Origin: an uncultured Fibrobacteraceae bacterium
GTDB lineage: Bacteria; Krumholzibacteriota; Krumholzibacteriia; LZORAL124-64-63
DNA length: 64,000 nt
Reading direction: 5' to 3'
NCBI GenBank assembly: GCA_964476155.1
Contig: CAYYYS010000003.1
Span: forward strand, 52,489 to 116,488
In this document: in pieces, positions 19,936-58,258 of the stretch
Layout of the letters: each line of letters starts with the position of its first letter
How positions within the stretch are numbered: position 1 is the first letter of the stretch
Notes under the pieces: generated by a model
Told to the model about the DNA's origin: nothing
Database searches by the model: none
What the model saw: the letters and a program-made list of their open reading frames with translations, nothing else
Translations under genes and position numbers: made by a program

Positions 19936-19961
19936 GATTATGCCGAGCCTCCTCTCCTGGG

Positions 19962-22597: not shown

Positions 22598-22656
22598 GTC
22601 GATTCCTGTCCCGTCTGCAGAGGATCCGTTTCCCAGATGCCGCACGCGCCGGCAAT

Positions 22657-23375: not shown

Positions 23376-23608
23376 TCGTTTCGGCGCCACCGCAGCAGTC
23401 CACGTTGTCTTCCTTTCCATGGTCATCAGAATTACAGACTCTTTTGCTCAGGTTACCCCAGGGCAAAAGCACGCGCAACACGTATTGCGATCGGAAGTTA
23501 GCAAGACTGACTTGAAGTGGACAGAGCCACGCTTTCCTGTTCCCGCGCCGCAGGTGTTGCTCTAGTATCGGCATAGCATCATCCTGACCACAAACCAACG
23601 GTGAGACC

Positions 23609-26600
23609 ATGACGACAGACGGAACACATCTGACGAGCGACTTGGCGGCCTGGCGCGACGGCGAGGCCGATCCCGCCTCGGCGGCAACCCTCCTGGATAC
23701 CTACAGTCACCATCTGGAAACGGATGCTCTGGACGAGGGCGTTTGGCGCGCGTTCCTGGAAATCACCCGCGAACCCGACTTCCTGGAGGCCCTCCCCGAC
23801 GACGACGCCCGTCGCCGCTGGGCGGACCTGGCCATCGGTGTGGTCCGGCGCACGGGCTTCACGTTGGCAGATCTGCTCGACCAGCGGGTGGCGGCTCATC
23901 CCTCGCGCATCTGGCTGCGGGAGAGCCCTCTGACCGACGGCTCCGAGTGGAGTTACGATCGTGTCCGCACGAAGGCGCGCACCTACGCCGCCGCGTTCCT
24001 GGGCACCGGGCCGTTGCCTCGCGTGGCCCTGCTCACACCCAACACGGCACGCGGCGCTTTCTGCGATCTGGCCTGCCTGCTCCACGGTATCCTGGTTACG
24101 CCCCTGTCTCCCCAAACCGACGCCGAGACCATCGCCTGGATCTGCGACACCCTCGGCGTGACCGTCATCGTCAGCGGCGGCGCGGAGCAGGCGGTTACGG
24201 CCACGGCGGCCATCAAGGCGGCCGACATCGACATCGTCCACCTCGTCCTGGAGGATCAGGCTCCCGCCGGCTGCGACGCGCGTCCCCTGGAAGCCCTGTG
24301 CGCGACCTTGACCCAATCGGACATCGACAATGCCCTGGCGGCTCAGCCCCGCTTCGGGCTGGACGACGTGGCCACGGTGATGTTCACCTCCGGCAGTACC
24401 GGCCGGCCCAAGGGCGTGGAGTTCTCCCTCTACAACCTGGTCAGCAAGCGCTTCGCGCGCGCCGCGGCCCTGCCGTCGGTGGGTCGCGACGAGGTCATGC
24501 TCTGCTTCCTGCCGCTCTTCCATACCTTCGGCCGCTACCTGGAACTGCTGGGCTCCATGTTCTGGGGCGGCGCGTACGTCTTCGTGGGCAACAACTCCCG
24601 CGCCACGCTGCTGACGCTGCTGCAACGGGTCCAACCCACCGGATTGATCAGCATCCCCCTGCGCTGGGCCCAGATCCAGGAGAGCTGTCTGAACCACATG
24701 GAGGATCAGGGCGCCGGCAAGCTGTCGGACGAGGACTTCCGCGCGGTGGCCGGTGGAAACCTGCGGTGGGGGCTGTCGGCGGCCGGCTATCTCGAACCGC
24801 GGATCTTCCGCTTCTTTCAGCGCCACGGCGTGGACCTGTGCAGCGGTTTCGGCATGACCGAAGCCACCGGCGGCATCACCATGACGCCCCCGGGCGACTA
24901 CCTGGACGATTCGGTGGGCAAGCCCCTGCCGGGCGTGAACGTACGTCTGACCGAACAGGGCGAGATGCAGATCTCGGGCCCCTACATCGCCAGTTACCTG
25001 GACCAGGAAGGCCACCCCGGCGACGGGAGCTGGCTGTCGACGGGCGATCTGTTCGCGCGTCACGAGAACGGTCACCTGGAGATCGTCGACCGCATCAAGG
25101 ACATCTACAAGAATTCCCGCGGCCAGACCATTGCGCCACGACGCGTGGAGCAGCGCTATGTCGAGGTGCCGGGCATCAAGCGTGTTTTCCTGGTCGGCGA
25201 CCATCGCGCGGACAACGTGCTGCTCATCGTGCCCGATCCCGAGGATCCGGTCCTGCAGGGAGATCCCGCGGGCAAAGAGACGCGCGACTACTTCCACCGC
25301 ATCGTGACCGCCGCCAACCGCGACCTGTCCTCGTTCGAGCGCGTCGTCAACTTCGCGGTGCTCGATCGCGACTTCAGCGAGGAGCGAGGCGAACTCACAC
25401 CCAAGGGTTCGTTCCGGCGCAAGACCATCGAGACGAACTTCCAGGACGTCGTGGACGATCTGTACCTGAGCGACAACGTGGATCTGCAGGTGAACAGCCT
25501 CACCCTGCGTGTGCCTCGCTGGTTTTTCCGCGATCTCAGCATCCTGGAGACCGACATCACGGCGGGATCGAAACATCTGCGAAACGTGGTCAACGGTTAC
25601 GAACTCGAAGTGGAACGGGTGGACGAGTCCTTCGTGCGGGTCGGCGACCTGCTCTACGAACTGCCCGGAGACACGGTCGACCTCGGCCGCCTGTCCCGTC
25701 AGCCCGGACTGTGGGCCGGCAACCCCCAATTGGCGGCCTTCTGCCCGGTCCGCGACGGTTGGGATACGCCCTACGCGCCCTTCACGCCCCATGTGTACCT
25801 GCCCTGGCGAAGCGAGAGCGGCGAGCCGTCCGATCCGGGCGCCCTGCCCCCCATGAGCGACCACCGGCTACCGCGCATCCACGATCTGTGTCGCAAGGCC
25901 CTGCTCGGGGTCGGCGAGTACGCCTTGAAGGCCGTGGTCGAGTTGGAAAAATCCCTGGCCATCGCCGATCACCGGACAGCCGAACTTATTCGGCGGCGAG
26001 TGGAAGCCCTGTCGCGCCATCCCGAGATGGACATCCGCTGCTATGCCTACCGCACGCTGGTGCTGGACGAACCATCACCCGACTTCAGCGAGTTGCGGCC
26101 CAAGTTCATCAGCTCCGGTCTACCGTTCCTGGACGCCAAGACCATCACGACGATTACCCGTGAGGGCATGGAGGGCCGCCGTCTGGATGCCTTCCGGCGT
26201 CGTCTGCACGCCTACCGCCTGCACCTGACCTGGCCGGGCGACGACCTGGTCCATTCCCAGTTCGAGAGCATCTTCACCATGCTGGCCGAGTTCGTGCGGC
26301 TTCATCCGGGCTACTACCGGGTGGTCCGCGACGAACTCGTGAGCTGGATCCTGCTGCGCGAGGATCCGGTGATCGCGGACCTGGCCGAACGCACGACCCT
26401 GGAACTCGGCAACTGGTACGAGGACTGGCTGGCCGGGACGCAGCCGTATCATGGCGAAGCCGTGTGGGAGCAGAAGATCCTCTTCCAGGACGGCTTGTCC
26501 CAAACGGAGATCACGCGTCTCGAGGAGACGCTAGCGGGCACGACCTTCCTGGAGCAGTCGGTCCGGCTGACCACCGGCGGCGAGATCCTGGATATGCGCG

Positions 26601-28204
26601 ATGTGCCCCAGGGGGGTATCTGGATCGGGCGGACGGCGGTCCGTCACCATCAGCGCATCTATCGGATCAGCGTGAACACGAACTCCGGCAAACACTACGA
26701 TCTGCTCATGGTGCTCTGGGACCAGGAAATCGTATCGCGGGACCGTGACGAACTCCTGGCCACGATCTACTGGCTGATCGCGCTCAGCGGCCACCCCCAC
26801 GGTACACCGGTCCTACCTCGCTTCGGCGCCTTCCGGCCCGGCATCGGCGCCCTGTCCCTGGCTTTCGTGAGTGACCTGAGTGTCTGGGAGCGGATTCGCG
26901 AATATGCCGGGGAGCGCGATCAAGGGCTCGACGTGGATCGCACCCTCGACTGGCGTACGCTCTTCGTGAAGGCTTTCACCACGTTCTTCCGCGGCTGGCG
27001 GATCAGCGGCGAGCGGATCGTGCCGGGCATGCTCACGCCCACCAACGTGGCAGTGCCGTCGCCCGATTTCCGCGAGGGTGCGCGCGTCCTGTCCCTGGCC
27101 GGGCTGCGCCCCTATGACAATCCCCTGAGCCTGGTGCAACCCATCCTGCACAATTTCTTCAAGCAGACGACGGTCACCTATCCCTGGACGCGCAACCGGC
27201 TCGAGCTCACCTGGATCTGCGACGCCTGTCTGGAGGCCATGCCCCGCGAGCGCGCCGAAAGTTTCCTCGCCGAGTTGCAGGACCTGATGCAGGACAGTCC
27301 CCTGGACGGTTACCGGGCTCAATTCGCGCGGGAACTCACGACCTACCGCGAACGCATGAAGATGGAGCCCCACATGAGCACCGCCCTGCGCGGCGCCGTG
27401 AAGCGTTACCGCAGTTGGGAACACTCGAATCCCGAGGCGTCTTCGACCGCCCGCGAACAGATCATCGTGGAGATGCGACACCTGTACGACCTGGACGCCC
27501 AGCCCCCGGTCGTCCGCTACATGCTCTACCGCCATACCTGGTTCCGGTGGTCGGCCGCACCGGTCCGCGAGGCCTTCGACGCCTTGCTGAGGACCCTGCA
27601 CACGACGCCGGACCGCGCGGCCACGGATCTGGTCGAGATTTCCAGGCTCCAGGCGCTGCTTCAGGATCCCGACGACCTGCGGATCTTCCGGCGCATGGTC
27701 TTCCCCCACTCGCCCTCGTCCCAGCAGCCCGTGCTGATGACCGTCGGCTCCGAGGAGGACCGGCATGTGGTGGTGGGCACCGAGATCGCCGACAAGACCG
27801 GCGCCACATACACGGTGCGGGTTCCCCTGGCACCGGCCGAATACGGCAAGCTGTACAGGCTTTTCTTCAAGGCAGGGTACTACAAGACCATCTCCGAGCA
27901 GGACCAGCTCTTCATCGTGTTCGACGAGCAGGAGCAGGTCATCGGCGGCATCAGCTGGACCGAGGTGGATCGTCAGGTGGTCCACCTGAACGGCATCGTG
28001 GTCGCGACGTCCCTGCTGGGCCGCGGTATCAGCAGCGTGTTGATCGAGGACTGCTGCGATCGCCTGGCCAACATGGGATACGAGACCGTCAAGACGCTGT
28101 TCGTGTTGCGTCCCTTCTTCGAACGGCACGGCTTCCATCTGGACAAGCGCTGGGGCGGATTGGTGCGGTCGTTGCAGGACATGCCGGAGGATGCTGAGAC
28201 GTGA
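23609..28204 (+). CDS. giant multidomain protein: N-terminal AMP-forming acyl-CoA synthetase/ligase domain, ~750-aa unknown central region, C-terminal GNAT acyltransferase domain
   Basis: Single 1531-aa ORF. Residues ~100-620 carry the adenylate-forming enzyme motifs (VMFTSGSTGRPKGV, GFGMTEATGG, GDL...DRIKD, PKGSFRRK). The C-terminal ~150 aa carry a GNAT CoA-binding motif (IVVATSLLGRGISSVLIEDCCDRLANMGYETV). The middle region has no motif I recognise. The overlapping 806-aa ORF in another frame is an R/P-rich artifact. Confidence 0.7.
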   Translation: MTTDGTHLTSDLAAWRDGEADPASAATLLDTYSHHLETDALDEGVWRAFLEITREPDFLEALPDDDARRRWADLAIGVVRRTGFTLADLLDQRVAAHPSRIWLRESPLTDGSEWSYDRVRTKARTYAAAFLGTGPLPRVALLTPNTARGAFCDLACLLHGILVTPLSPQTDAETIAWICDTLGVTVIVSGGAEQAVTATAAIKAADIDIVHLVLEDQAPAGCDARPLEALCATLTQSDIDNALAAQPRFGLDDVATVMFTSGSTGRPKGVEFSLYNLVSKRFARAAALPSVGRDEVMLCFLPLFHTFGRYLELLGSMFWGGAYVFVGNNSRATLLTLLQRVQPTGLISIPLRWAQIQESCLNHMEDQGAGKLSDEDFRAVAGGNLRWGLSAAGYLEPRIFRFFQRHGVDLCSGFGMTEATGGITMTPPGDYLDDSVGKPLPGVNVRLTEQGEMQISGPYIASYLDQEGHPGDGSWLSTGDLFARHENGHLEIVDRIKDIYKNSRGQTIAPRRVEQRYVEVPGIKRVFLVGDHRADNVLLIVPDPEDPVLQGDPAGKETRDYFHRIVTAANRDLSSFERVVNFAVLDRDFSEERGELTPKGSFRRKTIETNFQDVVDDLYLSDNVDLQVNSLTLRVPRWFFRDLSILETDITAGSKHLRNVVNGYELEVERVDESFVRVGDLLYELPGDTVDLGRLSRQPGLWAGNPQLAAFCPVRDGWDTPYAPFTPHVYLPWRSESGEPSDPGALPPMSDHRLPRIHDLCRKALLGVGEYALKAVVELEKSLAIADHRTAELIRRRVEALSRHPEMDIRCYAYRTLVLDEPSPDFSELRPKFISSGLPFLDAKTITTITREGMEGRRLDAFRRRLHAYRLHLTWPGDDLVHSQFESIFTMLAEFVRLHPGYYRVVRDELVSWILLREDPVIADLAERTTLELGNWYEDWLAGTQPYHGEAVWEQKILFQDGLSQTEITRLEETLAGTTFLEQSVRLTTGGEILDMRDVPQGGIWIGRTAVRHHQRIYRISVNTNSGKHYDLLMVLWDQEIVSRDRDELLATIYWLIALSGHPHGTPVLPRFGAFRPGIGALSLAFVSDLSVWERIREYAGERDQGLDVDRTLDWRTLFVKAFTTFFRGWRISGERIVPGMLTPTNVAVPSPDFREGARVLSLAGLRPYDNPLSLVQPILHNFFKQTTVTYPWTRNRLELTWICDACLEAMPRERAESFLAELQDLMQDSPLDGYRAQFARELTTYRERMKMEPHMSTALRGAVKRYRSWEHSNPEASSTAREQIIVEMRHLYDLDAQPPVVRYMLYRHTWFRWSAAPVREAFDALLRTLHTTPDRAATDLVEISRLQALLQDPDDLRIFRRMVFPHSPSSQQPVLMTVGSEEDRHVVVGTEIADKTGATYTVRVPLAPAEYGKLYRLFFKAGYYKTISEQDQLFIVFDEQEQVIGGISWTEVDRQVVHLNGIVVATSLLGRGISSVLIEDCCDRLANMGYETVKTLFVLRPFFERHGFHLDKRWGGLVRSLQDMPEDAET

Positions 28205-28222: not shown

Positions 28223-29128
28223 TCAGGACACGAACCGATCGTGGAAGACACCGTGGCGCAGTCCGCGATCGCAGATGATCATGTCATCGGTCCCCAGACG
28301 CGACATCAGGGCCGCAACGATCGACGCGCCGGCGAGCATCACGTCGGCGCGCTGCGGATGCAGGCCGGGGATACGCCGACGGTCGCGCAGGGACATCTCC
28401 CGCAGACGGCCGATGGCGGCCTCCACCACGCGCCGCGACACGGTCCGGCCGTGAACCTCGGCGTGATCTTCCCACCCCACACCGTAGTGCACCGTCCCCA
28501 GGCTGACCGCCGTGGCGCCGATGCCCACCAGCTTGCCGCTGCGCACCGGGACCGTCTCGATCACGCGACGCAGGGCGTCCGACAACTCGGCCAGCTCCGC
28601 AACGGTCACCGGATCGGACAGCAGGTGGCGGTCTGTCAACACGCGCGAGCCCACCGGCAGGCTGCACGATTCGTCGATGCGGCCGTCGATCCCCTGCACG
28701 ACTTCGGTGCTGGCGCCCCCCGCGTCGAAAACCTGCACGGGGTCGTCGCCCAGATCGAGGGATGACGTGGCGGCCAGGAAGGCGAGCCGCGCTTCCTCCG
28801 CGCCCGACAGGACGCGAACGCCGATCTTGCAGCGGTTGCGGATCCAGGTCACGAACTCCTTGGCGTTGTCGGCCTGACGCAGGGCCTGGGTGCCCACGGC
28901 CGCGATCTTCTCCGCGCCGAGACCCTCGGCGTGGGCCTTGAATTCCTTGATGGCGACGAGCGTCCGGTCCATGGCGGCTTCCGACAATTCGCCCGAGCCG
29001 GCCAGTCCCTCGGCCAGACGATTGACCACGGCCATGTCGGCCACTTCGGTCACGCGCCCGTGGACCACACGGCCCACGTACATCTTGAGCGAGTTCGAGC
29101 CGATATCTATAATCGCCTGCCTGATCAC
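28223..29128 (-). CDS. ppx: Ppx/GppA family phosphatase (exopolyphosphatase / guanosine pentaphosphate phosphohydrolase)
   Basis: The N-terminal IIDIGSNSLKMYV, FDAGGASTE and overall actin-like ATPase fold signature match. 301 aa. Confidence 0.8.
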   Translation of the reverse strand: MIRQAIIDIGSNSLKMYVGRVVHGRVTEVADMAVVNRLAEGLAGSGELSEAAMDRTLVAIKEFKAHAEGLGAEKIAAVGTQALRQADNAKEFVTWIRNRCKIGVRVLSGAEEARLAFLAATSSLDLGDDPVQVFDAGGASTEVVQGIDGRIDESCSLPVGSRVLTDRHLLSDPVTVAELAELSDALRRVIETVPVRSGKLVGIGATAVSLGTVHYGVGWEDHAEVHGRTVSRRVVEAAIGRLREMSLRDRRRIPGLHPQRADVMLAGASIVAALMSRLGTDDMIICDRGLRHGVFHDRFVS

Positions 29129-32825: not shown

Positions 32826-34037
32826 TCACCAGTCCAGCAGTTGGACTCTCAATTCAGCACCCGCGACAAGCGTGTCCACCTCGCGCGGCACCTCGAGCAG
32901 GGCGTTGGCGCTCGCAAGACCACTGAGCATGTGGGAGCCCTGTCCCTGGGTTGCGCGGGCCTCGAACCGCCCGTCCACAAGCTCCACGACACCGCGGGCC
33001 CATTCCAGGCGACTGGACTTTTTAGTGATGGGCCTGGTCAGGGTAGCGATGGGATGCCGGGCCGTATCGGCCGTCTCCCCCCGCAGACGCCGCAGGGCCG
33101 GGGCGACGAACTGGTGAAAGGAAACCAGCGCGGAGACCGGATTGCCGGGCAAGCCGAACATGAAGCATCCGCCGGGCGCCAGGCCGAAGACGTTGGGCTT
33201 GCCGGGCTTCATGGCCACGCGGTTGAACAGCTCCCGCACACCCAGGTCCGTGCGCACCGCTTCCACATGGTCATGATCGCCGACCGAGGCGCCACCGATG
33301 GTGATCACCACGTCGCAGCGCTTCATCTCGCGCGCCAGGACACGGCGCAACGCCCGCGGATTATCGCCGACCGTCGCGCGACGTATGCGGCCGACGTCCA
33401 ATCGCTTCAGGGCCGCGGCCAGGGCCGGTCCGTTCGCGTCGCGGATCTGCCCCGCCCTGAGCGGAGTCCCCGGCGCCGCGAGTTCGTCGCCGAGCGTGAC
33501 CAGGGCCACGTCCGGCCGGCGATGTGCGCTCAACGTACCGATGCCGTTGGCGGCCAGCAGGCCCACGACCGGCGGCGTGACGATCGTCCCCGCCGCCACG
33601 AGCGGACTCCCCCGACGCAATTCCTCACCGCGAAGCCGGATGTGCTCGCCGGTCGCGGGAGTCCGGCTGACGACCACCGTGTCGTCATGCTCCGTGGTGT
33701 ATTCCTTCATGACGACGGCGTCGGTATCGCGAGGGATCATCGAGCCCGTAAAAACCTTCACGGCACAACCGGATCGCAAAGGCAATCGGCGTGTGCAGCC
33801 GGCCGGCATTTCGCCGGTCAGACGCAACTCGACGGGCCGGCGCGACGCGTGTGAGGTGTCGGGCAGAAGAACGGCGTAACCGTCCATGGCCGACTGGTCG
33901 AAGCGAGGCAGATCGACCCGCGTTCGCACGTCGCGGGTCAGGACACGCCGGTCCGACTCCGCGAGCGGAACCGACTCCGCCGGCAGGGGACGCACCGCGT
34001 CCAGGGTCGTGTTGATGGCATCCGCGTAGTCTATCAT
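32826..34037 (-). CDS. moeA: molybdopterin molybdenumtransferase MoeA
   Basis: SAMDGYAV, the GGVSVGDHD-like region and the C-terminal MoeA domain are present. The start at 34037 (MIDYADAINT) overlaps the upstream gene stop by 4 nt. Confidence 0.85.
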   Translation of the reverse strand: MIDYADAINTTLDAVRPLPAESVPLAESDRRVLTRDVRTRVDLPRFDQSAMDGYAVLLPDTSHASRRPVELRLTGEMPAGCTRRLPLRSGCAVKVFTGSMIPRDTDAVVMKEYTTEHDDTVVVSRTPATGEHIRLRGEELRRGSPLVAAGTIVTPPVVGLLAANGIGTLSAHRRPDVALVTLGDELAAPGTPLRAGQIRDANGPALAAALKRLDVGRIRRATVGDNPRALRRVLAREMKRCDVVITIGGASVGDHDHVEAVRTDLGVRELFNRVAMKPGKPNVFGLAPGGCFMFGLPGNPVSALVSFHQFVAPALRRLRGETADTARHPIATLTRPITKKSSRLEWARGVVELVDGRFEARATQGQGSHMLSGLASANALLEVPREVDTLVAGAELRVQLLDW

Positions 34038-34972
34038 CGGGTCACCTCGGGACGGGCATCGTCCTCGTGCCCACCGCCCCACAGCATCTTGAAGGCGTGG
34101 GGAAGCCCCGGAAAGAGCGCGTCCAGGGAATCGCTCACACCGCCGCGTGATCCCGGCAGATTCACGATGAGCGTATGGCCGCGAATACCGGCGCGGGCCC
34201 GGGACAGCATCGATAACGGTGTGCGGGCCTGTCCGTGGGCCCGCGCCGCTTCGGGGATACCGGGGGCTTCGCGTTCGATCACCTTGGACATGACTTCGGG
34301 CACATTGTCGCGCGGGCCGAAGCCCGTGCCGCCGGTCGTGATGACGAGATCCAGGCGATCCTCATCGGCATAGCGGCACAGCTGCGTCTCGATGCCCGCC
34401 GGCTCGTCCGAGACGATCGCATAATCGGCCACCTGGAAACCCTCGTCCTCGAGACGCTCGCGGATCATCAGACCGGACAGGTCCTTCTTCTTCCCCGCGG
34501 CGATGGAGTCGGACAGCACCAGCACCGCCGCCCGCAGCACCGTCGCGTCGAACTTGTGGAAATCGCTCTTGCCGCCCCGCTTGCGCAGCAGCCGGGTCTC
34601 GCCGATGTGCATGTCGGCGTCGAGCATCTTCAGCATGTCGTAGAGGGTAAGGGTCGCCACGGACGCCCCGGTCATGGCCTCGACCTCCACTCCGGTGCGA
34701 TCGATACCCGTGACCGTCACCTCGGCAACGATGGTCCCGTCACCCGTCTCGAACGTCACCTCTACGCCATCGATACGAATAGGATGGCAATAGGGAATGA
34801 TCTGCGGCGTGTTCTTGACCGCCTGGACCGTGGCCACCTTGGCGACCTCCAGGGGATTGCCCTTGGGTACGCCGCCGGCTTCGATGATGGCCATGGTTTC
34901 GGGCGCGAGGTGCAGGACGGAGCACGCCGTGGCCGTGCGCAGGCTGGGTCCCTTGCGATTGACGTTGATCAC
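34034..34972 (-). CDS. moaC: bifunctional MoaC (cyclic pyranopterin monophosphate synthase) / MogA-MoaB domain protein
   Basis: The N-terminal MoaC region shows IPYCHPIRIDGVEV and EAMTGASVATLTLYDM. The C-terminal MogA/MoaB domain shows VLSDSIAAG...ITTGGTGFGPRD. The true start may lie upstream at a non-ATG codon. Confidence 0.8.
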   Translation of the reverse strand: MINVNRKGPSLRTATACSVLHLAPETMAIIEAGGVPKGNPLEVAKVATVQAVKNTPQIIPYCHPIRIDGVEVTFETGDGTIVAEVTVTGIDRTGVEVEAMTGASVATLTLYDMLKMLDADMHIGETRLLRKRGGKSDFHKFDATVLRAAVLVLSDSIAAGKKKDLSGLMIRERLEDEGFQVADYAIVSDEPAGIETQLCRYADEDRLDLVITTGGTGFGPRDNVPEVMSKVIEREAPGIPEAARAHGQARTPLSMLSRARAGIRGHTLIVNLPGSRGGVSDSLDALFPGLPHAFKMLWGGGHEDDARPEVTR

Positions 34973-35196
34973 TGTGGTTTCTCCGTTTCGGGTCGGTCGC
35001 TGACGGCGGACTCCAGATCCGCCAGATCCTGCGGCGTATTGACGTTGAGAAAACTCGATCCGCGAGGATCGACCTCGCGCAGGTCGGTTTCGGTTAAGGT
35101 TCGAAACCCGATACTGTCGACGGCGCCGATGCGTCGCGACCGACCGCCGGCCAGCACCACGGCACCGACACTCTCGGCTGACGGCCTCCCGTCCAC
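34969..35196 (-). CDS. mini MobA-like ORF (75 aa), possible degenerate molybdenum cofactor guanylyltransferase
   Basis: Contains the MobA N-terminal motif VVLAGGRSRRIG and a C-terminal ending NVNTPQDLADL, but lacks the ~110 central residues. It overlaps the MOSC stop and the moaC start, so it is translationally coupled. Confidence 0.4.
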   Translation of the reverse strand: MDGRPSAESVGAVVLAGGRSRRIGAVDSIGFRTLTETDLREVDPRGSSFLNVNTPQDLADLESAVSDRPETEKPQ

Positions 35197-35199
35197 CGC

Positions 35200-35652
35200 T
35201 CAGGCCTCCGCGCTCGCGACGGTCAGACGAACGACTTCGTCACCGGGCTTCAGGTCCCCGCCCTGGAGCACCTGGCAAAAAATGCCTTCCCGCGGCATGA
35301 TGCAATCACCGGTCTTCTCGCGGATGACACACCCGTGATGGCATTCCTTGCCGATCTGGGTGACCTCCATCAGGATCTCGGCACCGATGCGCACGCGATC
35401 ACCGATGGTCGTCTCGCGCCAGTCGATACCGCTGGTGATCAGGTTCTCGGCGAAGGCGCCATCCTCGATTTCACTGTAGAGGGCGCGCATGCGCTCGATG
35501 CTCTCCAAGGCCAGCACCGAGACCTGGCGATGCCAGGGGCCGGCGTGAGCGTCGCCTTCGATACCGTGTTCGGTCCGCATGACCGCCGTCGGCACGGACA
35601 CCTTGGTTGTGCCCTTTTCCTCGCTGATACAGATCGCTTCCAAACGCGCCAT
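35200..35652 (-). CDS. MOSC domain-containing protein
   Basis: MARLEAICISEEKGTTK..., GDAHAG and a conserved Cys (IGKECHHGC) are typical of small MOSC beta-barrel proteins (YiiM-like). The longer ORF to 35805 is a 5' extension. Confidence 0.6.
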   Translation of the reverse strand: MARLEAICISEEKGTTKVSVPTAVMRTEHGIEGDAHAGPWHRQVSVLALESIERMRALYSEIEDGAFAENLITSGIDWRETTIGDRVRIGAEILMEVTQIGKECHHGCVIREKTGDCIMPREGIFCQVLQGGDLKPGDEVVRLTVASAEA

Positions 35653-35874
35653 TGGTCCTGTCCATCCTCTCAAGCATGAGCCGTCGATGAACGTATCCGG
35701 GACATCCGTCGCGCGAATATCCATCCCGCCGCCAAGGCTCTCGCCAGGTTTCTGGTCATGAAGGCGATGGCCCCTGTAATCAACGTGACAAGGGACAGGG
35801 TGCAAACCCCGTTGACGAGTCTCATTTCACCCCACCAACTCCAGTTCGATCGCTGCGCAGCGACGAGCTTCACG

Positions 35875-37281
35875 TCATCCGCCGATCTGCGCCATGCTGT
35901 CGAAGGTCCGGTCGGTCCGTTCCCGTTCCGCGGCCCGACCATCCAGAAGTCGATTGGCGACCGACGTCCGAATGGCCTGTTCGAGCAGATCGTCTCGGGC
36001 GCCCTCGCGCTGCAGACGACCCAGATCGGCTCCGGTGGCTCCGTAGAGACAGGTCCGCAGCCGTCCCCTCGCGTCCAGGCGTAGTCGGCTGCACCCCGCG
36101 CAGAACGTGCGGCTGTGCCCCCTGATGACGCCGACCCGGCCCCGGTGTCCGGGTATCGTGTACAGGTCGTCGACGTCGGCCGCCGCGTTCGGGCTCTCTT
36201 GCAACTCGAAGCGGACGCGCAGACGCTCGATGATCTCGTCCCCCGTTATGCCCCGAGCGAGCCTCTCACCCGACCCGACGAAAGGCATGGGCTCGATGAA
36301 GCGTACGGTAACGTCCCGCTCGCGAGTCAATTCGACGAAGGCCGGGAGTTCGTCGTCGTTGACGCCGGGGATCACCACGACGTTGATCTTGAGAGCCAGC
36401 CCCGCCGCGGGGATCAGGTCCAGCAGGGGGCGAACCCGCGGCAATTCGTCGCGGCGCGTGACGTGCCGATAGGTGTCGCGATCCAGGGAGTCGAGGCTGA
36501 GATTAACGCGGCGGACACCCGCCGCGGGGAGGTCGGCGAGGCGGTCAGCAAGCAAGACGCCGTTGGTGGTGAGCAGGATCTCGGGTCGTGAGGGCAGCTC
36601 CGCCAAACGGGCCATGAAGCGAAGCACGCCTTTGCGAACCAGGGGTTCACCGCCGGTCAGGCGAATCTTACGTATCCCCACCCCTGCGAACAGGGCGGTC
36701 AAGCGATACAATTCCTCGAAGGACAGCACATCGCGGTGACTCACAAGCGGAATACCGTCAGTGGGCATGCAGTACCGACACCGCAGATTGCAGCGATCGG
36801 TGACCGACAGGCGCAGATAGTCGAGCTGGCGGCCCTGGGGATCGCGAAGTGGTTCGATAAGAGCAGATCCAGCCGACGCTGAAGCACCAGGAGGCCCGGT
36901 GTGCGGGAGGGGCATGTTTTCCTTCCAAGTACGGGAGCTGATCACGCCGTTTCCCGCGTGACCGTAGCGGCCCTTCGCCGTGTCCCGATCAGGGGATTTA
37001 GGTAGCCGGGCTGGGAAAACACAGTCTTGTGTTGTATGCTGCGACTCCAGAGACGCCCTGTACACTTCCAGTTTTGGTAGCGCGCTGGTCTTGTCGCCCT
37101 CAACCAAAACGAGATCCATCGCATTAAACCACAAGGACAGGATACTGTCCAGAGAGTGCTCGGGCCTAGCCCGGGTCACTACGGCAATCCTGGTCCCCGA
37201 TGCGATGACCTTTTCCAACAGGGTCGTCTTGCCCGTACCCGAACGAGCGACGAAAGCCACGGCCGGTGGATGTCTGGTCAT
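35875..37281 (-). CDS. moaA: fusion of shortened MobB-like P-loop domain and GTP 3',8-cyclase MoaA (radical SAM)
   Basis: The N-terminus AFVARSGTGKTTLLEKVI...DLVLVEGDKTSALPKLEVYRA resembles MobB with an internal deletion. It runs in-frame into a MoaA domain with CNLRCRYC (the radical SAM CxxxCxxC) and GGEPLVRKG. The start is ambiguous between 37356 and 37281. Confidence 0.75.
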   Translation of the reverse strand: MTRHPPAVAFVARSGTGKTTLLEKVIASGTRIAVVTRARPEHSLDSILSLWFNAMDLVLVEGDKTSALPKLEVYRASLESQHTTQDCVFPARLPKSPDRDTAKGRYGHAGNGVISSRTWKENMPLPHTGPPGASASAGSALIEPLRDPQGRQLDYLRLSVTDRCNLRCRYCMPTDGIPLVSHRDVLSFEELYRLTALFAGVGIRKIRLTGGEPLVRKGVLRFMARLAELPSRPEILLTTNGVLLADRLADLPAAGVRRVNLSLDSLDRDTYRHVTRRDELPRVRPLLDLIPAAGLALKINVVVIPGVNDDELPAFVELTRERDVTVRFIEPMPFVGSGERLARGITGDEIIERLRVRFELQESPNAAADVDDLYTIPGHRGRVGVIRGHSRTFCAGCSRLRLDARGRLRTCLYGATGADLGRLQREGARDDLLEQAIRTSVANRLLDGRAAERERTDRTFDSMAQIGG

Positions 37282-37470
37282 AGCTTGCCTCCCAGGCCTT
37301 CGATCTGCGTCAGAAGTGTATCCGCATATATCCTGTAACATGAGACCACTCTGCACAGCCGAAATGGCCTCAGACTGAATCCCCCCGATCCCCCCGATTC
37401 CAGTTTACCCCCACCCGACAATCGGCTATCATGATGATTCACACGACGCCCCTACCCGAAAGGAGCGGAC

Positions 37471-37776
37471 ATGCTGCGAATCCTCCTGCTGCTGATCCTA
37501 GTCCTCCTGGCCTGTACATCCTGCACCCCTCAATACGAAGAATCCGATGGACTGGTCGACTTCACCGACATCCCCGCCGAGTGGGGCCAGTTGGTTTCGG
37601 TGACCAAGTACAAGGATTCCCGCTACTACGAACTGTGGTTCAGCAATGCCGAGACGGGCTCGATCACCCACGTCCCCTTGGCCCGTGATTCCTGGAAGAT
37701 CAAGCTGGAGAAGGTGCGAACCGTTCCGCGCAGCGAAGCGACCACGGACCTGTTGAGAGTCGGAGGTGGGTCATGA
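37471..37776 (+). CDS. hypothetical small lipoprotein
   Basis: An AAAGGAG SD, a signal peptide and a lipobox (LLILVLLACTSC). 101 aa, no recognisable family. Confidence 0.5.
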   Translation: MLRILLLLILVLLACTSCTPQYEESDGLVDFTDIPAEWGQLVSVTKYKDSRYYELWFSNAETGSITHVPLARDSWKIKLEKVRTVPRSEATTDLLRVGGGS

Positions 37777-38003
37777 GGTTCGAAACCCTGTTGAGCGCCT
37801 TCAGCCGCACACTCTTTATCGTAGCTTTGCTGGTCTTCGTACTGGCGGTAGTGGAGAAGACGGCCAACATGAACGGCCAGACCCTGGCCTTCATGAACTA
37901 TTCACCCGGACGATTGATGGAAATCTCGGGAATCCTGCTGCTCTTCGTGGTCACGGTAACGCTCAGACGAATTCGCAAGATATTACAGAAGCCGCAAGAG
38001 TAG
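37773..38003 (+). CDS. hypothetical small membrane protein (2 TM)
   Basis: Its start overlaps the stop of the lipoprotein gene (ATGA). Two hydrophobic helices and a basic C-terminus (RRIRKILQKPQE). Confidence 0.4.
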   Translation: MRFETLLSAFSRTLFIVALLVFVLAVVEKTANMNGQTLAFMNYSPGRLMEISGILLLFVVTVTLRRIRKILQKPQE

Positions 38004-38072
38004 CAGGCTGCTGAAGAATTCATCCGGTACACGGCGTAGCCTCTCGTCGGCCTCACGTGGGGCTGACGGGGC

Positions 38073-39176
38073 TCAGTCGTCCGAATCATATTCGGGGACC
38101 TGACCACGGGCGTGATGATACTTGGGGTCGTCCAACTCCTGCACGCGCCATTGGAATTCATCCCGTGAGATACTCGTGTGCCAGGCCCCTGCCAGTTTGG
38201 CGACGCCGATCCCCCCGAAAAAGACCAGGACCACGCCGGCCGCGAAGACCATTGGGCGCACCTTGCCGCGCCAGCCCAAGGTCGACCGCACTTCCAGCGC
38301 TTCGGGAGCGGGACACTGGGTGACACACTCCAGACAACCCGTACACTCGGGGTCGTCCACGCGGGTCCTGCGATCCACATCCAGATAGGCGGGACACACC
38401 GCGGCACAACGACCGCAATCGGTACAGTCGGGGGCGCGGCGTACGATCTTCAGGGGCGAAAGCGCCGAGAGCAGGCCCAGCAGGGCGCCATAGGGACATA
38501 GATACCGACACCAGAAATAGGGAGCCACGAACGACAGGCCGACCAGCACGGCCAGCACCTGGGCGGTCAGCGACGACATGCGGGTAAAAAAATAGAGCAT
38601 CTTGATGTCGGCGATCCTGTTGTACGGCGATTCCAGGAAGAGCGCGATATCGCGCGGGTTCATCTGGATGAAGACCGCGTAGACGAGGTAGCCGATCAGC
38701 AGGTATTTCAGCGACATCAGGGGACGGTCGATCCAGACGGGCAGCTTCAGGCGCCGCCGGAAAATCCGGTAAGAGGCGCGCGCCAGGTATTCCGAGATCG
38801 TCCCCGCAGGGCACAGCCACGAGCAGAATGACTTCTTGAGCAGCACCGCCGACAGGCAGATCAAACCGAAGAGCACCAGACCGGCGGGGTGGATCAGGGA
38901 GAAGTCGCCGCTGGCGAGCCAGTGCTTGAGACTGATCATGGCCGAGATGGGCAGGAAGCCCTCGACCCCCGGGGGCCGCACACCGCCGGCTTCCAATCGC
39001 TCCAACCGGGAGACCCAGTCCGCGAACTGCACGCCGATCACGACGATCACCGCAAGCGTGATGAGCTGCACCGCTTGGCGGATGCGCAGGGGGTGACGCT
39101 GCTTGGACTTGAAGACGAGGGCCTTACGCTTGGCGCGGTCGACGCGCTCGGCAAGGTCACGCTTGGGGAAAATCAT
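38073..39176 (-). CDS. membrane-bound 4Fe-4S polyferredoxin (NapH/MauN/CcoG-N-terminal-like)
   Basis: CSWLCPAG and CRYLCPYG TM-embedded motifs, plus two ferredoxin motifs CTDCGRCAAVCP and CTGCLECVTQCP. The start is the Met at 39176 (MIFPKRDL). Confidence 0.75.
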   Translation of the reverse strand: MIFPKRDLAERVDRAKRKALVFKSKQRHPLRIRQAVQLITLAVIVVIGVQFADWVSRLERLEAGGVRPPGVEGFLPISAMISLKHWLASGDFSLIHPAGLVLFGLICLSAVLLKKSFCSWLCPAGTISEYLARASYRIFRRRLKLPVWIDRPLMSLKYLLIGYLVYAVFIQMNPRDIALFLESPYNRIADIKMLYFFTRMSSLTAQVLAVLVGLSFVAPYFWCRYLCPYGALLGLLSALSPLKIVRRAPDCTDCGRCAAVCPAYLDVDRRTRVDDPECTGCLECVTQCPAPEALEVRSTLGWRGKVRPMVFAAGVVLVFFGGIGVAKLAGAWHTSISRDEFQWRVQELDDPKYHHARGQVPEYDSDD

Positions 39177-39600
39177 GGGTACCTTCGACACGCAGTTCCA
39201 CATCGACCGTTCCGTCGGCCATCTCACGGACCGTATGCTCGTCGAGCATCGACAGGATGCGGGTGCGCAGTTTGAGCCAGGCGGGGTGCAGGGCGCAGGG
39301 GTTCGTATCGTCGCAGTGGGACAGTCCCATCAGACAGCCGCTCCCCCATGAATCGCCCTCGGTCGGGGCGACGACTTCCCGTAGGTGGATTTCTGCGGCC
39401 GGTCGGGACAGGGTGTAACCACCGCCCGGTCCGCGACGGCTGGTCACCAGCCCGGCCTGGACCAGACGGTTGAGGATCTTGGCCACCATGGGCAGGGAGA
39501 TGTCGAGCTTGACGGCCAGTTCGGCGTTGGCCACCAGCCCCTTGGCACGGGCGAGCACCGTTGCGGCATGTAGCGCGTAGCGGGTCTCCGTCTTGAACAT
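39157..39600 (-). CDS. Rrf2 family transcriptional regulator (IscR/NsrR-like, Cys-containing)
   Basis: The Rrf2 wHTH N-terminus (YALHAATVLARAKG...LPMVAKILNRLVQAGLVTSRRGPGGGYTL) is followed by three spaced Cys residues (C..C.....C) for a likely Fe-S cluster. Its 3' end overlaps the polyferredoxin start by 20 nt. Confidence 0.85.
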   Translation of the reverse strand: MFKTETRYALHAATVLARAKGLVANAELAVKLDISLPMVAKILNRLVQAGLVTSRRGPGGGYTLSRPAAEIHLREVVAPTEGDSWGSGCLMGLSHCDDTNPCALHPAWLKLRTRILSMLDEHTVREMADGTVDVELRVEGTHDFPQA

Positions 39601-39651
39601 CGCATCCCCGATCGGGTGTACGAGACTGATATCCCTGGTTAATTCTATACC

Positions 39652-39733
39652 TATCGATAATCTTTTGAGGGCGTCTCGTCAAGTAGCTTGCGGACAACGA
39701 TAGTCTTGTTCATCGCGATATATCGATTATTAT
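39652..39733. promoter_or_regulatory. AT-rich divergent promoter region with two TATCGAT(A/T)AT motifs (candidate Rrf2 operators)
   Basis: Lies in the 200-bp gap between divergent Rrf2 and resB starts. It has a locally low GC, the palindrome TATCGATA at 39652-39659 and ATATATCGATTATTAT at 39718-39733. Confidence 0.3.
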
Positions 39734-39799
39734 GGTCCGATGTGATCGGGTTGCTCCCCAATCATCCCGGCCACCTTCGACCGACCAACGAACGTCTCC

Positions 39800-41524
39800 A
39801 TGAAATGGACGGTAAACGTGAACGGTTTTCTTCGTCTTCGACCGGTCAGGGTCCTGGCCTCGATGAAGCTGAGCGTGGTGCTGCTGGTAATTTTTGCCGT
39901 GGCCATCGCCAAGGCGACCTTCATCGAGTCGCAATGGGGCGCCGTCGGCGCCCGCGACATGGTCTACAACGCCCCTTGGTTCGAAGGGCTCCTGGCCCTG
40001 TTGATCGTCAGTCTCACCCTGGTGCTCTTCGCGCGCGCTCCCTACAAGCCGCGTCAGTACGGCTCGGTCGTGATCCACATAGCCGTGATCTGGATCCTGG
40101 TTGCCGCCGGCATCACGCGCTATATGGGCTACGAGGGCATCATGCCCATCCGCGAGGGTGCGTCGATCGATCATATGTTCTCCCGCCAGCCCCATGTGCA
40201 GTTGACGATCGACGGTGTAACCAAGTCGTTCCCGGTCAGGCTATACCGACCAGGCGCAACCGGCATTCACCAGGATCTCGACGGCTACCACGTGGCGGTC
40301 GAAGAGTACTGGCCCCGTTTCGCCGAGAGCCTCCAGGCCTCCGACGAGGGCCCGGCGGCCCTGCGCCTGACCCTGAGCGGCGACGACGGCGTCGAAGACG
40401 TCTTCCTGATCGAGAACGAGCGTCGCACCTTCGGCGGTTTGGCCATGCACTACGAAAACGGCCCCCTGCCCGAATCGAGCGGTGTCTCGCCCTGGGGCCG
40501 ACTCCGCATGCGCGGCGGCGGCGAACCGATGAGCTTCGACGTACCCGACGCGGTGCCGGCGACCTTCGAGCAGGCCGGCTGGCGATTCACCATTACCGAG
40601 TTCCAGACCGACTTCAAGGTGGGCGGCGAGACCGACTATTCCGGCGAGTTGCGCAACCCCATGATCCGCGTGGACGTGGCCGCGCCCGACGGCCGCGTCG
40701 GTGAGAAGGTCCTCTTCGCCTTCCACCCCGAGTTCTCCATGAACCACGGCGGCGCCGAGGAGGACTTCCCCGATCTCGATATCCTTTTCCAGTTCGAACG
40801 CGGCGTGACCTTTGGCCGGGACGACACCGGCAACCTGGTTGCCCGCGCGTCACAGCCCCTGGAGTCGATGGGTATGGCTGATGAAGCCGAACCGTCGGCA
40901 ATCGAGGCGGGCCAGGCCTTCCCGATCGACACCGCAACGGAGTATCGCGGCGACGGCGGCGGCCCCGCGTTCATGATGCGGGAAGCCCTCGACCACGTGC
41001 AGACCCTGCCGGCCCTGTCCCACGACGAGCGCGCCCCGGCGGCCGCCCGCATCTCGGTGACGAACCAGGCCGGCGCCCGCGCCGAAGCCATCGCCATCAA
41101 GGGCGACAAGCGCGGCGAGACGGTCATGATCGGCGACCGGCAAGCCGTGCTGCGACTGGGATCGATCGTCATCGATCTGCCCTACGAGATCCATCTGGAC
41201 GATTTCAAACTGCTCAACTATCCGGGCAGCCGCAACCCTGCCAGTTACGAGAGCCACGTTCGCCTGATCGACTCTGAACTGGGCATCGACGGCGAACCGG
41301 CGCGCATCTACATGAACCATCCGCTCAGTCATCGGGGGTTCAAGCACTTCCAGTCGTCATACGATCCCGACGAACTGGGCACGGTGCTGTCGGTGAACTA
41401 CGACCCCGGCAAGATCCCCACCTATCTCGGCTACGGGTTGCTCACCCTGGGCTTCCTGTTGCTTCTGCTCCGGGACCTCATCTGGCCTGCCCGACACGGC
41501 GAATCCGCAGGGAGGACGTCATGA
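39800..41524 (+). CDS. resB: cytochrome c biogenesis protein ResB/CcsB (System II)
   Basis: An N-terminal TM region (VVLLVIFAVAIAKATFIE) is followed by a large periplasmic domain and a C-terminal TM helix. The C-terminal region HPLSHRGFKHFQSSY is typical of ResB. Confidence 0.85.
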   Translation: MKWTVNVNGFLRLRPVRVLASMKLSVVLLVIFAVAIAKATFIESQWGAVGARDMVYNAPWFEGLLALLIVSLTLVLFARAPYKPRQYGSVVIHIAVIWILVAAGITRYMGYEGIMPIREGASIDHMFSRQPHVQLTIDGVTKSFPVRLYRPGATGIHQDLDGYHVAVEEYWPRFAESLQASDEGPAALRLTLSGDDGVEDVFLIENERRTFGGLAMHYENGPLPESSGVSPWGRLRMRGGGEPMSFDVPDAVPATFEQAGWRFTITEFQTDFKVGGETDYSGELRNPMIRVDVAAPDGRVGEKVLFAFHPEFSMNHGGAEEDFPDLDILFQFERGVTFGRDDTGNLVARASQPLESMGMADEAEPSAIEAGQAFPIDTATEYRGDGGGPAFMMREALDHVQTLPALSHDERAPAAARISVTNQAGARAEAIAIKGDKRGETVMIGDRQAVLRLGSIVIDLPYEIHLDDFKLLNYPGSRNPASYESHVRLIDSELGIDGEPARIYMNHPLSHRGFKHFQSSYDPDELGTVLSVNYDPGKIPTYLGYGLLTLGFLLLLLRDLIWPARHGESAGRTS

Positions 41525-43287
41525 ACCGCACCACGAAGACCCTGGCGACAACCTTCCTGATCATACTCGCCCTGGCCACGACGGCCAGCGCCCAGGAACA
41601 CGACCACACCCAGGCCCAGGCGCCGCGCTTCAACTACCTGGACCCGTCCAACCGCGACCTGGCCCGCGACCTGGCCCTGCAGGATTTCCGGGGACGCATG
41701 AAGCCCCTGGACACCCATGCGCGCGAGATCATCATGAAGGTCGCCAAGCGCGAGACCTTCGAGGGCTGGGAGCCGCTGGACCTCTACCTGAGCTGGGCTA
41801 CCCATGCCTCGTTCTGGTACGACTACGATCTGGTCTACGTGAAACATCCCGGCGTGAAGGCCCTGCTCGGCATTCCCGAGGACCAGGGCGAGGCCCATTT
41901 CGGTTCGCCGGGCAAGGCCGTGTGGATCAGCGCCGCCCGCCTGATCGACGGCAACCGGTACGTGCTGGGCGACGCCGTGCGCGAAGCCCTGCGGACACCC
42001 GACGCCGAGCGGACCAAGGTGCAGCGCAAGCTCCTGAAGTTCGACGAGCGCTTCAACATCTTCTGGAACGTGATCAACGGGGGCGGGCTCAAGATTTTCC
42101 CGATTCCCGGCGACGCGAACAATACCTGGCTCGACTTCAACGAGATCCGCGAGACGGATCTCCCGGCGGAGATCACCACGGCGGCCGACGCCCTGGCCCT
42201 GGGCCTGCGCGACATGGACAACGGTCGTATCCGACTGGCCCTCGAGACCATGCGCACCCTGCAGGCCACCCACGGCGCCGAGGTGCTCCCTTCGGGGGCC
42301 TCGCTCGACGCCGAGCTGTGGCTCAACGCCCACCATCCCTTCCGCAACGTGACGCTGCCGTATCTGGTGGCGTTCCTGGTGCTGATCGTAGCGTTTTTCT
42401 GGAGCCTGGGTAAGCGCAACGGCGAACCCTACCGGTGGCGGCATCCGCTGTACGCCATTGGCCTGTTGGTCTATTGGTGTGCGACCGGCTACCTCCTCTA
42501 CGCCTTTGTCCTGCGCTGGGTCGCCTCGGCGCGAGCGCCCCTGAGCAACGGCTACGAATCGCTGATCTTCATCGCCCTGTCCACGGCCATCGCCGGCGCG
42601 ATCTTCGAGTTCCGCGACCGGCGCGGGTCGGCGGCGGCCGTTTCGGCACTGCTGACGACGTTGATCCTGTCGGTGGCCATGCTGTCGACCTTCGACCCGG
42701 CCATCGGGCCGCTGGTGCCGGTGCTCGCCTCCTACTGGCTCAACATCCACGTCACCGTGATCACCGGCAGCTACGGTTTTCTGGGACTCGGCTCGCTGCT
42801 GGGCGGCCTGACCCTCATCCTCCACCTGCTCAAGGGACCGGGGCGCCGGACCATCCGCGACGCCATCATCAAGCTGGATCACCTCCAGTTCCGCGTGCTG
42901 GTGACCGGCCTGGGACTGCTGAGTATCGGCACCTTCCTGGGCGGCGTGTGGGCCAACGAGTCGTGGGGGCGCTACTGGGGCTGGGATCCCAAGGAGACCT
43001 GGAGCCTGGTCACCATCCTGGTCTACGCGGTGGCGATCCACTTCCGCTGGATTCCGCAATTGAACCGCCCCATTGTCCTGGCCACGAGCGCCTACGCGGG
43101 TATCGCCTCGGTGGTGATGACCTATTTCGGCGTCAACTATTTCCTGAGCGGACTGCACAGCTACGCCCAGGGCGACTCCACACAGGTGCCCGACTGGGTC
43201 TACATCATATCGGCGTTCATGCTGGTCCTGATCACGGCGGCCTGGCTGGTCGATCGGGCCCGCAGCTGGGAACCCGAATCGAACTGA
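41521..43287 (+). CDS. ccsA: cytochrome c biogenesis protein CcsA/ResC with large N-terminal periplasmic domain
   Basis: Overlaps the resB stop. A signal peptide precedes the W-rich heme-handling motif WANESWGRYWGWDPKETW (WWD domain) and multiple TM helices. Confidence 0.85.
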   Translation: MNRTTKTLATTFLIILALATTASAQEHDHTQAQAPRFNYLDPSNRDLARDLALQDFRGRMKPLDTHAREIIMKVAKRETFEGWEPLDLYLSWATHASFWYDYDLVYVKHPGVKALLGIPEDQGEAHFGSPGKAVWISAARLIDGNRYVLGDAVREALRTPDAERTKVQRKLLKFDERFNIFWNVINGGGLKIFPIPGDANNTWLDFNEIRETDLPAEITTAADALALGLRDMDNGRIRLALETMRTLQATHGAEVLPSGASLDAELWLNAHHPFRNVTLPYLVAFLVLIVAFFWSLGKRNGEPYRWRHPLYAIGLLVYWCATGYLLYAFVLRWVASARAPLSNGYESLIFIALSTAIAGAIFEFRDRRGSAAAVSALLTTLILSVAMLSTFDPAIGPLVPVLASYWLNIHVTVITGSYGFLGLGSLLGGLTLILHLLKGPGRRTIRDAIIKLDHLQFRVLVTGLGLLSIGTFLGGVWANESWGRYWGWDPKETWSLVTILVYAVAIHFRWIPQLNRPIVLATSAYAGIASVVMTYFGVNYFLSGLHSYAQGDSTQVPDWVYIISAFMLVLITAAWLVDRARSWEPESN

Positions 43288-57900: not shown

Positions 57901-58254
57901 TGACCTGACTGGGATGGTTGTGGCTCTCGTGAGCGATGATCACGCCATAGCGCACGCCGTCGACCGTTCCGAAATCCACGATGCCCGCGTCCTCCACCGG
58001 TCCGACGATCACATTGCTGCCGGTCGTCGGCAGGAACTCTTTTAATGTGGGTCGACTGCTCTTGTACGAGCAGTGCTCGCTCCACATGGTGTCGAAGAGG
58101 GTGAGCTCGGTCAGCGTCGGCGGGCGTGCGAGGAGGTCCTGGACCCGGCGCGCCTCGGTGGGCGACAGGGTCAGGGCGTGGGTCTTGAGCGTGGCGCGAA
58201 GGGCGTCGTCACCCAGGGCCGCGGCGTCCAGGGTGTCAAAGGAAGGATCGTGGG

Positions 58255-58258
<4 letters not shown>
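54989..58258 (-). CDS. purL: phosphoribosylformylglycinamidine synthase, PurL-PurQ fusion
   Basis: A small-PurL-type N-terminus (MWSEHCSYKSS) with two AIRS-like domains is fused in-frame to a class I glutamine amidotransferase domain (LGICNGCQVL, HPER). 1089 aa. Confidence 0.85.

Follow-up and report, generated by a model that had tools for sequence, protein, structure and literature searches.

A probably autoregulated rrf2-polyferredoxin operon back-to-back with System II cytochrome c genes in a Krumholzibacteriota lineage

When a regulator of the Fe-S sensor type, a membrane polyferredoxin and the genes for cytochrome c maturation are found side by side, do they share a common control, or are they simply neighbors? 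The question is raised by a locus in 64,000 nucleotides of an uncultured bacterium assigned to Krumholzibacteriota (contig CAYYYS010000003.1, positions 52,489 to 116,488), a stretch that we call the window. On its minus strand, the gene for a 147-aa Rrf2-family regulator (rrf2, 39157-39600) is followed by one for a membrane polyferredoxin of the NapH/MauN/CcoG superfamily (polyFd, 38073-39176). The System II cytochrome c biogenesis genes resB (or ccsB, 39800-41524) and ccsA (41521-43287) leave in the opposite direction on the plus strand. A preliminary description of the locus took two TATCGAT motifs in the intergenic region for half-sites of an Rrf2 dimer, suggested redox- or nitric oxide (NO)-responsive co-regulation of both gene pairs, and proposed that the polyferredoxin replaces CcdA/ResA as a source of reductant. 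Its observations on genes and motifs are accurate, while the paired-operator and reductant-substitute readings are unsupported. We favor a bicistronic, probably autoregulated rrf2-polyFd operon, divergent from a resB-ccsA operon that has a promoter of its own, a reading to which we give a probability of about 0.6.

As had been noticed, the Cys-containing rrf2 overlaps the start of polyFd by 20 nt (39157-39176, minus strand), the polyFd ATG lying at 39176 and the rrf2 stop codon at 39157-39159, a layout that points to translational coupling within one operon. An overlap of 17-20 nt between rrf2 stop and polyFd start is also called in L161, L163, L164, L165 and L166, five of the 167 polyFd loci that we collected across many phyla and to which the L numbers refer. 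The polyFd open reading frame (ORF) spans 38073-39227 and has an alternative GTG start at 39227; the ATG at 39176, with GAAGG upstream, gives a protein of 367 aa, the length of many of its closest homologues. Because the stretch of about 700 bp 3' of polyFd holds two small convergent ORFs on the plus strand (37471-37776 and 37773-38003, of 101 and 76 aa, with a 4-nt overlap), which close off the operon, rrf2-polyFd is bicistronic. This pair of small ORFs is conserved in L001, L145 and L162. Neither product has a family match; the first has a lipoprotein-like signal and the second is a membrane protein. On the other side of the locus, resB (PF05140, 84.6 bits) and ccsA (588 aa; PF01578, 132.6 bits; TIGR03144, 180 bits, marginally under the 187.6 cutoff) share a 4-nt overlap and are both typical. 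The true start of resB is probably the GTG at 39818, behind the ribosome-binding site GGACGG, since GGA(A/C)GG-N5-GTG is conserved in the comparison with L001.

The region between the two operons (39601-39799) is indeed AT-rich, as the preliminary description had it: it is 199 bp long, with 50% GC against 64% for the window. Footprinting by alignment of this gap from 8 relatives revealed four conserved blocks amid diverged sequence, and in them two sigma-70-like promoter architectures that point away from each other and are conserved both in sequence and in spacing. The putative rrf2 promoter (Prrf2, minus strand) has a -35-like box TTGACG at 39677-39682 and a -10-like box TATCGA at 39654-39659, which reads TATCAA, TATCTA or TATCTC in relatives and is directly followed by GGTATAGAATT. 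Most relatives fit TTGAC(G/C)-N17-TATC(A/G/T)A, and all eight fit TTGA(C/T)N-N17-TATCNN, including L167, which deviates in its boxes (TTGATT and TATCTC) and keeps the spacing of 17 nt. Facing the other way, the putative resB promoter (PresB, plus strand) has a -35-like box TTGTTC at 39706-39711 and a -10-like box TATTAT at 39728-39733, with TTGT(T/C)(C/A)-N16/17-TAT(C/T/A)(A/T)T found in 8/8 relatives. An Rfam scan of 37200-40000 gave no match, which makes an RNA element unlikely.

The best operator candidate in the gap is a conserved 21-mer, ATTATCRATNGGTATAGAATT, that spans -10/+1 of Prrf2 and occupies 39641-39661 on the minus strand of the window (ATTATCGATAGGTATAGAATT). The form ATTATCAATCGGTATAGAATT is identical in L001, L161 and L162, despite diverged flanks and only 72-77% protein identity to the window; the window differs from it at two positions and L163, L165 and L166 at three to five, and in L167 none is found even with six mismatches allowed. 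Where the 21-mer is found there is one per locus, and we detected no further copies in the window or in the loci of relatives. In the window it contains the pseudo-dyad ATCGAT-AGGT-ATAGAA, for which relatives read ATCNAT-NGGT-ATAGAW (6-4-6); the symmetry is 4/6 per arm in most relatives and a perfect 6-4-6 in L163. The promoter -10/+1 region is the usual place for an autorepressor to bind, and the overlap of the 21-mer with this part of Prrf2 therefore suggests autorepression. It would also resemble the autoregulation of IscR, which acts from an operator over its own promoter.

Distant rrf2-polyFd loci carry a different dyad. AAGAC-N6-RTCTG scores at least 8/10 in 14 of 21 such loci, with 5% of shuffles as good, although the consensus was itself built afterwards on the sequences that it scores. 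Between the dyad and the rrf2 ATG there are 20-41 nt in 12 of the 14 loci, a position that fits operators at the rrf2 promoter. The dyad recurs in loci of Bacteroidota, Ignavibacteriota and Zixibacteria, where it stands just 3' of -10-like boxes in L012, L023, L033, L041, L046, L055, L064, L070, L072 and others; L005 and L123 have TGAC-N6-GTCA instead. The recognition helices of the Rrf2 proteins differ between the window's clade and the clades with the AAGAC dyad.

What, then, of the TATCGAT motifs? Both were located correctly in the preliminary description, TATCGATA at 39652-39659 (site 1) and ATATATCGATTATTAT at 39718-39733 (site 2), and since the conserved boxes coincide with both of them, site 1 can be read as the -10 box of Prrf2, whose TATCGA is its core, and site 2 as the -10 box of PresB together with the adjacent spacer. 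We consider it very unlikely that they are a pair of Rrf2 operators through which one Fe-S sensor co-regulates polyFd and resB-ccsA in response to redox or NO. The idea has its merits: the motifs are real, the exact 10-mer TATCGATWAT occurs in the 64 kb only at these two sites, each of them either overlaps a core element of a promoter or lies right next to one, as would suit a repressor site, and the divergent layout is kept in seven related loci. As a repeat, however, the pair is not above chance: of 3000 shuffles of the gap that preserved its dinucleotides, 1129 (38%) contained a direct repeat of 10 nt with no more than one mismatch. With one mismatch allowed, TATCGATWAT occurs 4 times in the window against 1.3 expected (7/100 shuffles reach 4), and TATCGAT itself is over-represented there, with 11 copies against 3.7 expected, those outside the gap all lying within coding ORFs save the one at 15231. 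Neither site is conserved as such: the CG core of site 1 is specific to the window, relatives reading TATCAAT (most), TATCTAT or TATCTCA, and where the window has the TCGAT of site 2 the sequence of relatives is unrelated. Moreover, the sites occupy non-equivalent promoter positions, neither shows extended dyad symmetry in the window, and we judge the 69 bp between them too far for half-sites of one dimer. If site 1 is half of an operator, as it may be, its partner would be ATAGAA, 4 bp off, and not site 2. Nor is there a second copy of the 21-mer near PresB, and the adjacency of the two operons is lost outside one lineage. Another way for Rrf2, or some other regulator, to control resB-ccsA would be an imperfect dyad at 39692-39711, GGACAACG-ATAG-TCTTGTTC, that overlaps the -35 box of PresB. 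It matches at 5/8 in the window, at 7/8 in L001 and perfectly (8-2-8) in L162 (AACAAGAG-TA-CTCTTGTT), and at this position the window and L163 can also be read as AAGAC-N7-GTCY, similar to the dyad that precedes rrf2 in other phyla. We nevertheless hold this to be unlikely, because the dyad is absent or weak in L161, L165, L166 and L167, its spacer varies (2 or 4 nt), and one of its arms is the conserved -35 box, which already explains half of the symmetry. The difference in recognition helix also speaks against equating it with the AAGAC dyad.

The regulator itself is a clear member of the Rrf2 superfamily (PF02082, E=6e-30, 104.5 bits for a cutoff of 30; TIGR00738, 99.9 bits for a cutoff of 73.3). 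It bears C89-x6-C96-x5-C102-x2-H105, and this Cys/His motif is conserved in 26 polyFd-linked Rrf2 proteins, with C-x6-C-x5-C-x2-H-x2-W as the common pattern. The earlier proposal of an Fe-S sensor such as NsrR or IscR holds in part. Among solved structures, the best match is IscR (4hf2, E=7e-13), to which the protein can be aligned over the winged-helix N-terminus, its conserved Cys3-His residues lining up with the cluster-ligand positions of IscR and H105 falling on IscR H107. Yet it is far under the cutoff of every characterized equivalog: IscR (70.3 against 207.55 bits for TIGR02010, 60.7 against 275 for NF008110), the SUF regulator (69 against 111), NsrR (43.2 against 182, NF008240) and RirA (43 against 193). 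The first ligand spacing of IscR is C-x5-C, unlike the C-x6-C seen here, and the recognition helix is different (SLPMVAKILNRL). Nor does the window's rrf2 stand beside isc or suf genes, none of which was found among the ORFs of the window; relatives in the clade have a separate Rrf2 ahead of suf, just 32% identical to the window's. With NsrR the protein shares the Rrf2 fold and three Cys, but it has a conserved His past the third Cys, unlike NsrR, and no hmp, hcp or nor gene stands beside rrf2 in the window. Polyferredoxin-linked Rrf2 operons of other phyla, for their part, often include hemerythrin or DUF438-hemerythrin-PAS proteins, and a protein of the latter type is NO-induced in Desulfovibrio desulfuricans (PMC5701242).

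The description of the polyferredoxin as NapH/MauN-like likewise stands for its architecture and falls short as a family assignment. Its domains (two Fer4_5 and a Fer4_10) provide two CX3CP motifs and a C-terminal 2x[4Fe-4S] domain, as in NapH and MauN, and C118/C122-P, C223/C227-P, C251-C261 and C278-C288 are invariant in 27 homologues. NapH/MauN is also its best NCBIfam match, but well below cutoff (TIGR02163, 76.5 against 213.05 bits; NF007013, 72.8 against 234). It differs from these proteins in an extra fifth transmembrane helix and a conserved C-terminal tail, with W332, E340, R344, P351, Y353, H355 and G358 invariant. There is no napG, napA or mau gene near polyFd, whose neighbors are rrf2, the small ORFs and molybdenum cofactor genes, and Nap and Mau families are absent from the 25 most frequent families both in the upstream and in the downstream neighbor sets of the collected loci. 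An AlphaFold2 model (pLDDT 86, pTM 0.84) has five predicted transmembrane helices. From the order of these helices, both CX3CP motifs and both clusters are predicted to face the cytoplasm, and the conserved tail, together with loops carrying invariant His, Met, Tyr and Asp, is predicted to lie on the opposite, periplasmic side. Sequence search of the PDB gave matches through the generic ferredoxin domain only, and a fold search nothing below E=2.8, so that the membrane fold is without a solved relative. The protein belongs to the same superfamily as CcoG/FixG, with which it shares both CX3CP motifs and the dicluster domain, and it is a paralogue of the window's own CcoG, 25% identical over the membrane core (E=2e-11). 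It is not a CcoG, however: it has no FixG_C match, reaches just 19 bits for Fer4_18 and lies outside any ccoGHIS cluster, whereas the genuine CcoG of the window (Fer4_18 and FixG_C) is encoded at 15372-16808. CcoG is a characterized cupric reductase with two [4Fe-4S] clusters, and its smaller homologues, such as Escherichia coli YccM, lack the immunoglobulin-like domain (PMC7558416). The polyferredoxin is likewise without this domain, FixG_C, and has the short architecture of YccM.

How far does the arrangement reach beyond the window? The polyferredoxin family is very large, with at least 7860 homologues in many phyla (7860 of 8000 scored candidates at E<=1e-10). Seven fetched loci on distinct contigs (L001, L161, L162, L163, L165, L166 and L167) keep resB-ccsA divergent from rrf2-polyFd; their polyferredoxins share 63-75% identity with that of the window. 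L081 has the layout too, and comes from the population of the window itself. Members of this clade keep the order GDSL-FadL-ccsA-resB, then, divergently, rrf2-polyFd. Conservation of the neighborhood thus holds among close relatives, but it goes no further. In a 58%-identical relative, FadL and polyFd are directly divergent, with a second Rrf2 and sufCBDSU behind polyFd and neither resB-ccsA nor the upstream rrf2; resB-ccsA is absent from L082 too (66% polyFd identity), and about 150 further polyFd loci do not have it, the single exception being a weak CcsA-like match some 6 kb off in L153. Judged from this distribution, the neighborhood of resB-ccsA is lineage-specific synteny and not a functional module.

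Rrf2, for its part, is the immediate same-strand upstream neighbor of polyFd in 25 of 121 eligible loci, and in distant loci it is the top upstream family (22/91, the next being PilZ with 4). The pair is seen in Bacteroidota, Ignavibacteriota, Chlorobiota, Zixibacteria, a metagenome-assembled genome labelled Chromatiales and the window's lineage. Downstream neighbors are mixed across phyla: methyltransferase in 11/92, hemerythrin in 11/92 and histidine kinase in 7/92. Since Rrf2 tops the upstream neighbors across phyla while downstream partners vary, the conserved unit is rrf2-polyFd. A literature search for Rrf2 with a polyferredoxin, a NapH-like protein or ResB, and for DUF438 with hemerythrin and NO, returned nothing relevant, and no paper on the rrf2-polyFd pair was found.

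The genes that follow the pair differ with the lineage. In Bacteroidota and Ignavibacteriota (L026, L038, L041, L046, L047, L055, L065, L070 and others) they often encode a TehB-like S-adenosylmethionine methyltransferase or a hemerythrin or DUF438-hemerythrin-PAS_10 protein, a multihaem cytochrome c and an alginate-export-type porin being also frequent, and this gene content hints at a role in stress or detoxification. In the clade of the window, a second Rrf2 and a suf operon lie 3' of polyFd in L001, L161, L163-L166 and the P0023 contig (sufCBDSU where the locus reaches), with an FNR-like NAD_binding_1 gene between polyFd and the second Rrf2 in L161, L165 and L166. Neither the window nor L162 and L167 have a second Rrf2 or suf after polyFd. 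In the window, the molybdenum cofactor genes occupy 32826-37356 on the minus strand (a MobB-MoaA fusion of 493 aa, MOSC, a MoaC-MoaB/Mog fusion of 312 aa and MoeA), and an sdh/frd operon lies past them. We rejected the molybdenum cofactor genes as operon partners, given the roughly 700 bp and two convergent ORFs in between and their absence from this position in all seven clade loci.

Could the polyferredoxin nonetheless serve cytochrome c maturation? Of System II, the window has ResB and a CcsA with the tryptophan-rich WWD motif (WGRYWGWD). The thiol-reduction arm (CcdA, ResA/CcsX) is not in the window, as the preliminary description had remarked: neither a canonical CcdA (PF02683) nor a thioredoxin-like ResA was found among the scanned ORFs. 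In CcsA itself, the Cytochrom_C_asm domain is preceded by an N-terminal periplasmic extension (41521-42500, plus strand) that includes a signal peptide and measures about 300 aa, and the length of the protein, 581-588 aa, is maintained in all clade relatives. A DsbD_2 (PF13386) protein at 22657-23610, with GHCxxMCGP/PCGP motifs and no NCBIfam match, was tried as a hidden CcdA and rejected, for it lies directly 5' of a ccoI-like ATPase gene in a cbb3 oxidase cluster. This cluster is complete (15372-23610, minus strand), with CcoG, CcoP, a CcoN-CcoO fusion of 788 aa, FixS/CcoS (19962-20162), the CcoI-like P-type ATPase (20150-22660) and the DsbD_2 protein.

In its broader form, the proposal would have the polyferredoxin serve the biogenesis of metal cofactors in this lineage, as a source of reductant either in cytochrome c maturation, for the thiols of apocytochromes or the iron of haem, or in Fe-S assembly by SUF. 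This would explain why it sits between resB-ccsA, which flanks it in the seven related loci, and the suf operon that follows the second Rrf2 on the other side in most of them. Its paralogue CcoG, moreover, is a reductase on which the insertion of cofactor into cbb3 oxidase depends (PMC7558416), and the missing CcdA/ResA would leave a place to fill. Still, synteny within one clade is not independent evidence, the window has molybdenum cofactor genes in place of suf, and in about 150 distant loci neither of these two gene groups, resB-ccsA and suf, is next to polyFd. CcdA and ResA could be encoded elsewhere in the genome, beyond the window. The four invariant Cys motifs are on the predicted cytoplasmic side and, among 27 homologues, no Cys pair exists outside them, nor a transmembrane pair as in CcdA. 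The polyferredoxin is not a conserved component of System II, ResB/CcsA being near it in the close clade and, weakly, in L153 only. The proposal is accordingly highly improbable; in particular, a replacement of CcdA/ResA is not supported, as nothing ties the polyferredoxin to it. A further possibility joins several of these threads: rrf2-polyFd would be a widespread stress-response unit, in which a dedicated Fe-S sensor of the Cys3-His type switches on a YccM-like membrane reductase, and which in the window's lineage has come to lie between resB-ccsA and, in most members, suf, where it might feed cofactor maturation with some cross-talk through the 200-bp region. We find this, taken as a whole, an improbable scenario.

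Our preferred reading, that of an autoregulated rrf2-polyFd operon back-to-back with an independent resB-ccsA operon, can be put as a sequence of steps. The Rrf2 protein would carry an Fe-S cluster on its Cys3-His motif and, in the cluster-bound form, bind ATTATC(G/A)AT-NGGT-ATAGAATT over -10/+1 of Prrf2, repressing its own operon. Once the cluster was lost, oxidized or nitrosylated, repression would end and the level of polyferredoxin would rise. The latter would be a short, YccM-like member of the NapH/CcoG group, that is, a membrane-anchored electron-transfer protein or reductase which, by analogy with NapH and CcoG, would carry electrons, with the quinone pool or a donor in the cytoplasm at one end and a small acceptor, a metal ion for example, at the other. 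resB-ccsA would have its own promoter and probably stand outside the Rrf2 regulon.

Several points weigh against this reading. Neither the gap nor L001 yielded a promoter when scanned for terminators and for the strict sigma-70 consensus, which may not be the host's, and the assignment of both promoters thus comes from conservation. The -10 boxes are weak, TATCGA matching at 3/6. The 21-mer could be promoter or discriminator sequence instead of an operator, as its palindrome is weak in most relatives. The AAGAC dyad of other phyla has the circularity mentioned above, and the genes downstream of polyFd are of mixed kinds. Finally, the pairwise divergences of Rrf2 and polyferredoxin are correlated (Mantel r=0.886, 0/2000 permutations), which speaks for the pairing, but shared vertical descent alone would be enough to produce such a correlation.

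The rest of the window contains some gene arrangements worth recording. A plus-strand gene at 23609-28204 encodes a 1531-aa protein that combines an N-terminal AMP-binding (acyl-CoA synthetase-like) part with a C-terminal GNAT acetyltransferase; it adjoins a Ppx/GppA phosphatase gene (28223-29128), and both are also close together in L167. At 7605-9520 (plus strand), a LexA-like S24 peptidase gene overlaps that of a Y-family polymerase (IMS/DUF4113), forming an SOS mutagenesis cassette. A PurL-PurQ fusion is encoded by a single 1089-aa ORF at 54989-58258 (minus strand), flanked by purF and purB. On the 3' side of ccsA follow genes for FadL, a GDSL lipase, a rhomboid protease and a GT2 glycosyltransferase.

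The import of these results is modest, and their useful outcome is in good part negative: the palindromes of the control region fall within two promoter-like architectures, the link with cytochrome c is local synteny, and nothing points to a new pathway of reductant supply for System II. The rrf2-polyFd pair is uncharacterized, but what it combines, an Rrf2 sensor and a protein of the NapH/CcoG superfamily, is of known and ordinary kinds. On the positive side stands a unit of two genes, conserved in several phyla, that joins a Cys3-His Rrf2 regulator to a short polyferredoxin of the CcoG/NapH type. Its simplicity, a single sensor with a single target and a candidate operator delimited to 21 bp, makes this unit a handle on the function of the YccM-like branch.

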